Source of the DNA: a virus
Taxonomy: Duplodnaviria > Heunggongvirae > Uroviricota > Caudoviricetes
Length of the DNA stretch: 5,487 bases
IMG/VR virus record: IMGVR_UViG_2526164630_000029
Coordinates: 1-5,487 of that record
Reading direction: 5' to 3' (one strand)
Notes under the pieces: model-generated
Database searches by the model: none
Told to the model about the DNA's origin: nothing
The model's input: only the letters and a program-made list of their open reading frames with translations
Translations under genes and position numbers: made by a program
Shown: in pieces, positions 2,186 through 3,036 of the stretch
Layout of the letters: each line of letters opens with the position of its first letter
Numbering within the stretch: position 1 is the first letter of the stretch

Positions 2186-2346
2186 AAGCGAAAAAATCCC
2201 GCAGTGCTCACGGACAGGAACTGCGGGAGCGTTACGAAGATTGAGTGTAAGGAATTATTCTTATGTCACGACAAAAACATTAACTCAGAGAGGGAGGATG
2301 TGCCGTTCTTTTCAGGGAGAAAGGATTTATCGTCCTGAGGAATAAA

Positions 2347-2368
2347 GGTAAGGGGCCCGCCCCTTACC
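2347..2368. terminator. GC-rich hairpin, probable intrinsic terminator for sodC (possibly bidirectional)
   Basis: Perfect 9-bp inverted repeat GGTAAGGGG (2347-2355) / CCCCTTACC (2360-2368) with a 4-nt loop CCCG. It lies 8 nt downstream of the sodC stop; on the minus strand it is followed by TTTATT (complement of AATAAA 2341-2346). On the + strand it is followed by the moderately T-rich TGACTGATTATTG. Confidence 0.6.
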
Positions 2369-2375
2369 TGACTGA

Positions 2376-2903
2376 TTATTGAATGATGCCGCAGGCCATT
2401 CTCGCACCACCACCGCCCAGGGGCTCCGGATGGTCATGATGGTTATCACCGCCAGCATGAAGCATGAGAGAACGCCCTTTAATCTCTTTTAATGAGTTCA
2501 GTCTCGGGGCCAGGACCGGGTAGTTCGCTTTTCCGTCATGCGTCACGAACAGCGCAGGGAGGTCGCCCAGGTGTCCATCCGGAGACCAGGGGCCAAGATG
2601 TTTGCCGGTGTTTTTCGGGTCAAAGTGACCGCCAGCCGATAATGCTGCGACCGGTTTTCCGTCTTTCAGTGCCGGGGCGCAATTTCCTTTTTCGTGCACA
2701 TGAAAACCATGAATGCCTTCAGACAGAGAGTGAAGGGCTGGTGTGAACAGCAGACCGTAGGGGGTCTCCTGAATGGTTATTTTTCCAATGCTGACTTCTT
2801 TTCCGTCAGCACTGACAAGGTTCATTGGGACTTCCTGTTCTGCTGCGTATCCGCATGATGCTGCTGTCAGCATGGCAATGGCAGCAATGATTTTACATTT
2901 CAT
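2376..2903 (-). CDS. sodC: Periplasmic copper/zinc superoxide dismutase (SodC family), prophage-encoded cargo gene
   Basis: 175-codon minus-strand ORF; ATG is the complement of CAT at 2901-2903, preceded by GAGGG (Shine-Dalgarno) about 5 nt upstream; stop at 2376-2378. N-terminal hydrophobic signal sequence [20 protein letters not shown]. Cu/Zn-SOD motifs are all present: [38 protein letters not shown], and the Cys pair (GNCAPA ... ACGII). The 344-aa ORF in the track (2376..3410) is an unstopped upstream extension of this gene. Confidence 0.93.
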
Positions 2904-3036
2904 AAAACCCTCATTAATTCCGTTAACAGACTGAGCTTGCTGGTTACAGGGTAACAAACAGCGTTCTGATGATATCGCGCAATAGCTGTGCAATATCCTA
3001 TCACTGCGATTAATAATACCAATTGAGAGGAACATT
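2904..3036. promoter_or_regulatory. Divergent intergenic region between sodC and J; contains the J ribosome-binding site and presumably the sodC promoter (no convincing sigma70 hexamers identified)
   Basis: 133-bp AT-richer spacer between divergently oriented sodC (ATG at 2903, minus) and J (ATG at 3037, plus). GAGAGG at 3025-3030 is a Shine-Dalgarno 6 nt before the J ATG. The 5-3-5 palindrome GTTAC-AGG-GTAAC is at 2943-2955 and an AT-rich TAATAAT at 3011-3017. By eye I could not place a good -35/-10 pair. Confidence 0.4.

Follow-up and report, generated by a model that had tools for sequence, protein, structure and literature searches.

The 5,487-nucleotide stretch analyzed here (the window; positions 1 to 5,487 of IMG/VR virus record IMGVR_UViG_2526164630_000029) is, by its Pfam matches, the tail-tip stretch of the lambda-like late operon of an Escherichia coli prophage. 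Between tail genes I and J, and antisense to the late operon, it carries an intact sodC gene with an ATG start. This sodC region is almost certainly a self-contained cargo cassette, or moron, in the prophage tail operon, encoding SodC-F1, a dimeric Cu,Zn superoxide dismutase (SOD) that is secreted and in part held by a lipid anchor. The term moron, in the Juhala/Hendrix sense of 2000, denotes an autonomous cargo cassette within a phage late operon. The features found here agree with that usage. (i) The cassette lies between genes that are adjacent in relatives. (ii) It has its own terminator. (iii) Its base composition is deviant.

Limits and composition of the cassette

An earlier note on this DNA had placed an intact, reverse-strand sodC between I and J, and this was borne out: Pfam, NCBIfam, and PHROG all match the product, and the limits it gave for the region, 2186-3036, are exactly those of the I-J intergenic region (851 bp). 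The note had also taken some 850 bp to be inserted, and here only part of the claim stands. There is indeed extra sequence between I and J, but the cassette itself is shorter. Three phages or prophages with the same I and J genes and no sodC were compared: Escherichia phage PhiR5_1, the Shiga toxin 2c (Stx2c) phage PV98-693, and prophage PP6 of enteropathogenic E. coli (EPEC) E2348/69. Homology to the Stx2c phage and PhiR5_1 runs from I up to 2291, breaks, and resumes exactly at 3037. The 745-bp cassette thereby stands in place of about 131 bp of unrelated sequence, for a net gain of about 614 bp, and the 106 bp at 2186-2291 are common to the sodC-less relatives and hence lie outside the insertion (Table 1).

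How long is the spacer when sodC is missing? It is 240 bp in all three of these relatives and 60 bp in lambda. The short spacer that had been expected from lambda is thus real for lambda, but the sodC-less relatives have a longer one; neither length is that of the window. Base composition also sets the region apart. The GC content is 0.398 for 2904-3036 and 0.434 for 2186-2291, versus 0.58-0.60 for the tail genes, so that the flanks are AT-richer, as had been noticed. At third codon positions (GC3), sodC has a value of 0.506 versus 0.637-0.717 for H, M, L, K, I, and J, a comparison that the earlier note had proposed. This contrast in composition supports a separate origin of the cassette.

A separate observation concerns the sequence that the relatives have at this site. 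In two sodC-less loci (L006, 2761-2784, and L008, 2931-2954, plus strand), a terminator-like hairpin followed by TGTTTTTGTG lies just upstream of J. The stems of the two hairpins differ by paired changes (ACAGGCATCC/GGATGCCTGT versus GCAGGCACC/GGTGCCTGT). In the window, a hairpin of this type before J is swapped for the sodC cassette.

Table 1. Features located in the window, with strand and basis of each assignment
Feature	Positions	Strand	Basis
Whole sodC cassette (moron), 745 bp	2292-3036	-	Stretch missing from sodC-less relatives
sodC coding sequence, 175-aa precursor, SodC-F1 type	2376-2903	-	Open reading frame; Pfam, NCBIfam, and PHROG matches
sodC 5' region, ribosome-binding site and unmapped promoter/regulatory region	2904-3036	-	Sequence; GC 0.398
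sodC intrinsic terminator	2346-2369	-	10-bp GC-rich stem GGTAAGGGG(C)/..CCCCTTACC, then TTTATT
PasB-like small RNA element	2190-2291	-	Positional homologue of PasB; terminator kept, promoter lost
Minor tail protein L	164-871	+	Pfam
K, JAB/C40 peptidase	from 868	+	Pfam
Tail assembly gene I	1605-2185	+	Pfam Lambda_tail_I; intact homologue annotated in L001 (7603-8184)
Tip attachment/host specificity gene J, 5' part	3037-5487	+	Pfam FNIII-A_GpJ, Phage-tail_3, Ig_J

The SodC-F1 protein

The similarity of the product to Cu,Zn-SODs, which the earlier note had asked to be checked, is overwhelming. The Pfam family Sod_Cu (PF00080) matches with an E value of 3.9e-32 and 111.9 bits (cutoff, 28.9), the NCBIfam SodC equivalog NF007628 with 218.4 bits (cutoff, 165), and PHROG 1975 with an E value of 9.5e-97; among solved bacterial Cu,Zn-SODs in the PDB, the best match has an E value of 8.8e-63. 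In PHROGs, the family has the category “moron, auxiliary metabolic gene and host takeover.” The residues expected of a working enzyme are present: the copper ligands H68, H70, H93, and H149; the zinc ligands H93, H102, H111, and D114; the active-site R168; and the disulfide cysteines C75 and C171. All of these are invariant in an alignment of six bacterial SodC proteins that includes the window's own. The His, Asp, and Arg residues and C171 also line up with H46, H48, H63, H120, H71, H80, D83, R143, and C146 of human SOD1.

The translation begins with a hydrophobic N-terminal leader, in which two cleavage options overlap. Signal peptidase I could cut between A20 and A21, and a lipobox at residues 14-17 offers a site between AAS and C17. 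Both are in keeping with the published protein, for which a lipobox AASC and cleavage between residues 20 and 21 have been described and which is partly membrane bound via this lipobox (PMC2569942).

Which of the known phage SodC proteins is this? The closest description is that of SodC-F1 and SodC-F2, encoded by prophages CP-933R and CP-933V of E. coli O157:H7 (PMC2569942), with the same 175-aa precursor, 155-aa mature form, and AASC motif. The two differ solely at nucleotide 335, which specifies Leu or Pro (D'Orazio et al. 2008, PMC2569942). The window's product carries Leu112, as F1 does, and one copy in strain EDL933 differs from it at one residue, Pro112, which makes the window copy the SodC-F1 form. 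Two Stx2a-converting phages have an annotated sodC whose protein is 100% identical to the window's. At the DNA level, the I-J intergenic region aligns without any indel with an annotated sodC locus of E. coli UTAK-4 (L001), and 2251-3000 has no mismatch. The gene appears, then, to be the already characterized SodC-F1 cargo gene of O157-type pathogens, and it is routinely annotated. This agrees with the earlier note, which had called it a recognized class of lysogenic-conversion cargo and not a new system: the protein is a published one, and relatives with the same I and J exist without it. Relative to SodC-F1, no difference was seen in the gene; what differs is the setting, since the window's surrounding tail genes are mosaic (at most 97% identical to any complete genome) and frameshifted. 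Neither the I-J location of the gene nor the PasB-like element described below is taken up in the paper on SodC-F1 (PMC2569942).

SodC-F1 is dimeric, has about three times the activity of the chromosomal SodC (19,380 versus 6,290 U/mg), and is more stable (PMC2569942). In O157:H7 lysogens, expression of SodC-F does not depend on RpoS and takes place in exponential and stationary phase as well as in anaerobic culture; bacteria within Caco-2 cells show a relative enrichment of the enzyme, and deletion mutants are more sensitive to challenge with hydrogen peroxide (PMC2569942). The chromosomal E. coli SodC (b1646) belongs to the same family and has the same metal ligands, but it is 59% identical and lies at a core locus between ydhK and ydhF. 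It is a monomer that depends on RpoS, is confined to stationary phase, and has lower activity and stability (PMC2569942).

Distribution in E. coli

The sodC cassette was found in 547 of 5,426 complete E. coli genomes (about 10%), with up to five copies per genome. Its identity is at least 99% in 542 of 549 records and 99.9-100% in O157:H7 genomes. The neighboring L-K-I segment is present in 3,473 of the 5,426 genomes at far more varied identity, and the window as a whole has a best match of about 97% among the complete E. coli genomes and IMG/VR loci. Near invariance of a cassette whose tail-gene surroundings are mosaic is what a moron usually shows. Among the matches listed, the serotyped strains are mostly Shiga-toxin-producing and attaching-effacing (O157:H7, O55:H7, O103:H2, O111, O145, O121, and O45), and in some cases a single phage carries both the cassette and stx2a.

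Two stretches of the window are joints of this mosaic. Positions 1-500 (the end of M and the start of L) have 96 differences from the otherwise closest relative; the protein encoded there presumably resembles that of lambda L. The part of J at about 4500-5250 is likewise more diverged. The joints at 1-500 and 4500-5250 have the appearance of typical lambdoid tail-gene mosaicism around the nearly invariant sodC cassette.

Expression of sodC

The cassette carries its own expression signals, as the earlier note had proposed. A ribosome-binding site, GAGGG, can be read on the minus strand at 2908-2912, 4 nt ahead of the ATG. At the other end of the gene, the terminator hairpin starts 6 nt past the sodC stop codon, and the 51-nt stretch that includes it (2330-2380) has a folding energy of -17.9 kcal/mol. 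In sodC lineages 80-87% identical to this one, the stem is kept and the loop is variable. The right end of 2904-3036 does double duty, in that it also provides the plus-strand ribosome-binding site of J (GAGAGGAA, ahead of the ATG at 3037).

Where is the promoter? Fusions of lacZ to the 299 bp upstream of sodC-F were active and RpoS independent (PMC2569942). Within the sequence, the only lead would be a 32-nt block, CTATTGCGCGATATCATCAGAACGCTGTTTGT, which is identical in the lineage with 81% SodC protein identity (79.9% in DNA) and lies upstream of sodC. Candidates picked out by eye in the upstream region (a TATCAT with a poor -35 element, an FNR-like half-site, and a PhoP-box-like repeat) were all too weak to claim. 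The sodC leader also contains a perfect palindrome, GTTAC-AGG-GTAAC, with an adjoining GTTAAC (2945-2962, plus strand). It is partly conserved in the 81% lineage and could bind a regulator or form a structure in the leader.

How might such a gene work from inside a tail operon? A lysogen would make SodC-F1 from the gene's own RpoS-independent promoter while the phage late genes are silent. In the periplasm, the enzyme would remove superoxide that comes from outside the cell, for instance from host cells, and the lysogen would benefit. During lytic growth, Q-antiterminated late transcription would pass the cassette on the plus strand to reach J; it might read through the sodC hairpin, which is not followed by a T-tract in that direction.

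Several points weigh against this account of an acquired, autonomous, beneficial cassette. (i) Where an empty site might be looked for, the sodC-less relatives have 131 bp of other sequence. (ii) Strictly, the event may have been either a gain here or a loss in the other phages. (iii) A scan of the region upstream of sodC (2904-3036) for sigma-70 consensus promoters found none, so that autonomous transcription rests on the published reporter data and not on the sequence. (iv) The earlier note took the gene to mark a prophage that contributes to fitness or virulence; the virulence part of this rests on published in vitro and cell culture work with E. coli, not on work in animals. (v) Should the frameshifts in this copy be real, the prophage would be defective, though sodC itself would be unaffected.

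Frameshifts in the tail genes

The last of these points deserves a closer look. Seven single-base indels (six deletions and one insertion) set the window apart from intact relatives. They lie at 752, 860, 1156, 1318, 1542, 2124, and 5276 and throw L, K, I, and J out of frame. In gene I, whose intact frame ends with a TAA stop at 2183-2185, a 1-base deletion lies at about 2124. Gene J begins with the ATG at 3037 and continues past the end of the window, so that its N-terminal two thirds are present; a 1-base deletion at about 5276 shifts its frame after FEFWFS.

If real, these changes would place sodC within a decaying, noninducible prophage remnant, where it would be kept, if at all, for its benefit to the host. 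The distribution of the damage fits such an idea, as L, K, I, and J are hit and the 851-bp I-J region has no indel at all, with 2251-3000 free even of mismatches to the UTAK-4 locus. Yet the chance that seven random indels in 5,487 bases would spare the I-J region is about 0.3, so the pattern is not significant. None of the seven is common to any complete E. coli genome (best, 98.9%) or to any IMG/VR locus, six of the seven alter the length of a base run, as is typical of sequencing error, and substitutions relative to the nearest relative are mostly synonymous (33 versus 15). The indels are probably sequencing or assembly errors rather than real decay, and we regard a true remnant as doubtful. 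The cargo cassette remains the preferred reading of the sodC region.

SodC lineages in the I-J slot

Cu,Zn-SOD genes are also carried by Salmonella prophages, which the earlier note had cited as precedents. One of them fits closely. In prophage Fels-1 of Salmonella Typhimurium LT2, sodCIII lies between I and J and runs opposite to them, which matches the window in both slot and orientation, and its product keeps all ligands. It differs in having 60% protein identity, in an upstream region that cannot be aligned, and in the distance of only 53 nt from the I stop codon to the sodCIII stop codon, which leaves no room for a PasB-like element. The precedent of Gifsy-2 holds less well. Its sodCI likewise encodes a prophage Cu,Zn-SOD in the tail operon, in reverse to the tail genes, but comparison of the tail regions puts it in another slot, with a lom-like gene (after M) on one side and L on the other, and the protein identity is 59%. 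The Gifsy-2 enzyme, a stable dimer, is an established virulence factor. The window's SodC is about 60% identical to the Salmonella phage proteins, the same as to the chromosomal SodC; this does not reflect a recent exchange with Salmonella phages.

With Fels-1 included, four sodC lineages occupy the same I-J slot, with protein identities to the window of 100/99%, 87%, 80-81%, and 60%. Two of these come from E. coli or IMG/VR contigs: one is 81% or 80% identical (cM8a [L007], L131, and L132), and the other is 87% identical (L129 and L130). Outside this group, a search of one genome per species returned SodC relatives of at most 69% identity, apparently chromosomal and mostly from Serratia, Pseudomonas, and other Proteobacteria; none of the species-representative genomes searched gave evidence of the prophage SodC lineage. 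Judging by the lineages found in the I-J slot, sodC has likely resided there for a long time.

Could the cassette even be ancestral to the tail module, the sodC-less phages having lost sodC with no insertion ever taking place? The four lineages in one slot would suit such a history, and in Fels-1 the divergence of sodC (70% DNA identity to the window) is about that of the flanking I (78%) and J (72%) DNA, which suggests long residence. The rest of the evidence makes ancestry improbable. The sodC-less relatives have no deletion scar but 131 bp of unrelated sequence with a complete PasB promoter and a hairpin, the lambda I-J spacer is merely 60 bp, the GC3 of sodC is unlike that of all the tail genes, and the placement of Gifsy-2 sodCI in another slot means that the gene moves. 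Insertion of a mobile cargo cassette, long resident in this slot, accounts better for these observations.

A PasB-like element next to the cassette

What about the 106 bp between gene I and the cassette? EPEC E2348/69 prophage PP6 encodes PasB, an 83-nt Hfq-dependent small RNA (sRNA) (Pearl Mizrahi et al. 2021, PMC8550237). The published Northern probe and coordinates (PMC8550237, table S6) place PasB antisense in the I-J spacer, with its 3' end 6 nt past the I stop codon. The window has an element at the same position: here 2192 is the end of the U-tract and 2185 the end of the I stop codon. PasB plus 20 upstream bases aligns with the window at 68.5% identity over 108 columns (E value, 1.4e-8). 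Of the 83 positions of E2348/69 PasB, 52 are identical in the window, versus 57 in PhiR5_1 and 55 in cM8a, and the window is identical to the Stx2c-phage copy across the PasB-equivalent stretch. PasB and the window's element have the same terminator stem and U-tract, here a stem at 2223-2199 (CCCGCAG...CTGCGGG) followed by A and U6 at 2197-2192; the sRNA body has diverged.

A further difference lies upstream. In E2348/69, the Stx2c phage, and the diverged sodC locus of cM8a, the element follows a promoter close to consensus, TTCACA-16-TATAAT. A promoter scan of the window found neither this nor any other promoter-like site for the PasB-like element, and the cassette junction, where homology ends, falls 2 nt downstream of the expected position of the -10 box. 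The cassette would have landed beside the PasB gene that is usual in the I-J spacer, replacing its promoter. From these alignments, the common sodC cassette overwrote the PasB-family promoter, and the rarer cM8a-type cassette left it intact; in cM8a, L131, and L132, the promoter is retained between the sodC terminator and PasB. For the 87% type (L129 and L130), no PasB-type terminator was seen within 400 nt downstream of sodC, where the sequence is unlike that of the window. The window is accordingly best described as holding a promoter-less PasB-like element and not a demonstrable PasB gene; an Hfq-dependent PasB transcript has been shown only for E2348/69 (PMC8550237).

The promoter-less arrangement is widespread: 37 of 43 IMG/VR loci have it, as do EDL933, UTAK-4, and the Stx2a phage EH2201, all with the same 184-nt distance between the sodC stop codon and the end of the PasB-type terminator. 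The 106-bp sequence occurs at 1,013 places in 648 genomes, and among the matches listed no annotated feature lies at any of them. A side observation concerns one IMG/VR locus with an O157-type sodC (L097, about 4528-4650), in which the sequence changes 81 nt past the sodC stop codon, from GGCACATCC to GTAACCGGCTC, which suggests that the left junction of the cassette has been rearranged or has received an insertion.

Other RNAs do not explain the spacer. A scan of the window against Rfam (E values up to 1) placed no RNA family above threshold, leaving two sub-threshold chance matches, STnc400 (23 bits; gathering score, 80), which overlaps the sodC terminator, and a snoRNA. The anti-sRNAs AgvB and AsxR of enterohemorrhagic E. 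coli (EHEC) were ruled out, as they are located at the PR' moron site and not in the tail operon, and so were PasA, PasC, and PasD, located near Q and the lysis genes; only PasB fits.

Might the element have a new use? Transcription could read through the sodC terminator, end at the PasB terminator, and be processed into an Hfq-binding sRNA, so that the cassette would serve as a transcription unit for the PasB-like sRNA and the two would be coregulated. The layout invites this idea. The element is on the sodC strand, with its terminator ending 184 nt past the sodC stop codon; it keeps a terminator with U6 and has no promoter of its own; the arrangement recurs in the loci just listed; and the T-tract of the sodC terminator is interrupted (TTTATTCC). 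However, the sodC terminator has a strong, GC-rich, 10-bp stem, so that read-through may be slight. The O157-type copies are all at least 99% identical, and their conservation is therefore uninformative about function. The PasB-like element may also be an inactivated remnant, and a literature search for a link between sodC and sRNAs or Hfq in O157 found nothing relevant. An sRNA unit of this kind is thus a rather unlikely prospect, and there is only a slim chance that O157-type sodC has captured the PasB-like sRNA as its 3' end, in which case read-through and processing would be the sole source of the sRNA. If capture were true, it would tie an Hfq-binding regulatory RNA to the expression of an oxidative-stress cargo gene. 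A cargo cassette that abuts a promoter-less PasB-like element is the reading retained here. Neither PMC8550237 nor a survey of Pas sRNAs (Zhu, Shabalina & Storz 2026 preprint) mentions sodC, and in the literature searched no description was found of the sodC-PasB junction, itself a minor feature.

Significance

For SodC itself, nothing new follows from this analysis. The window is instead a textbook case of a prophage with a host-benefit gene inside its tail operon, and the sodC cassette marks the element as a lambdoid prophage of the Shiga-toxin and attaching-effacing lineage. The I-J spacer emerges as a composite accessory locus, normally the site of a PasB gene and, where the common sodC cassette is present, with that cassette sitting on the PasB promoter. 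This layout matters for anyone counting or studying the PasB-family sRNAs of EHEC.

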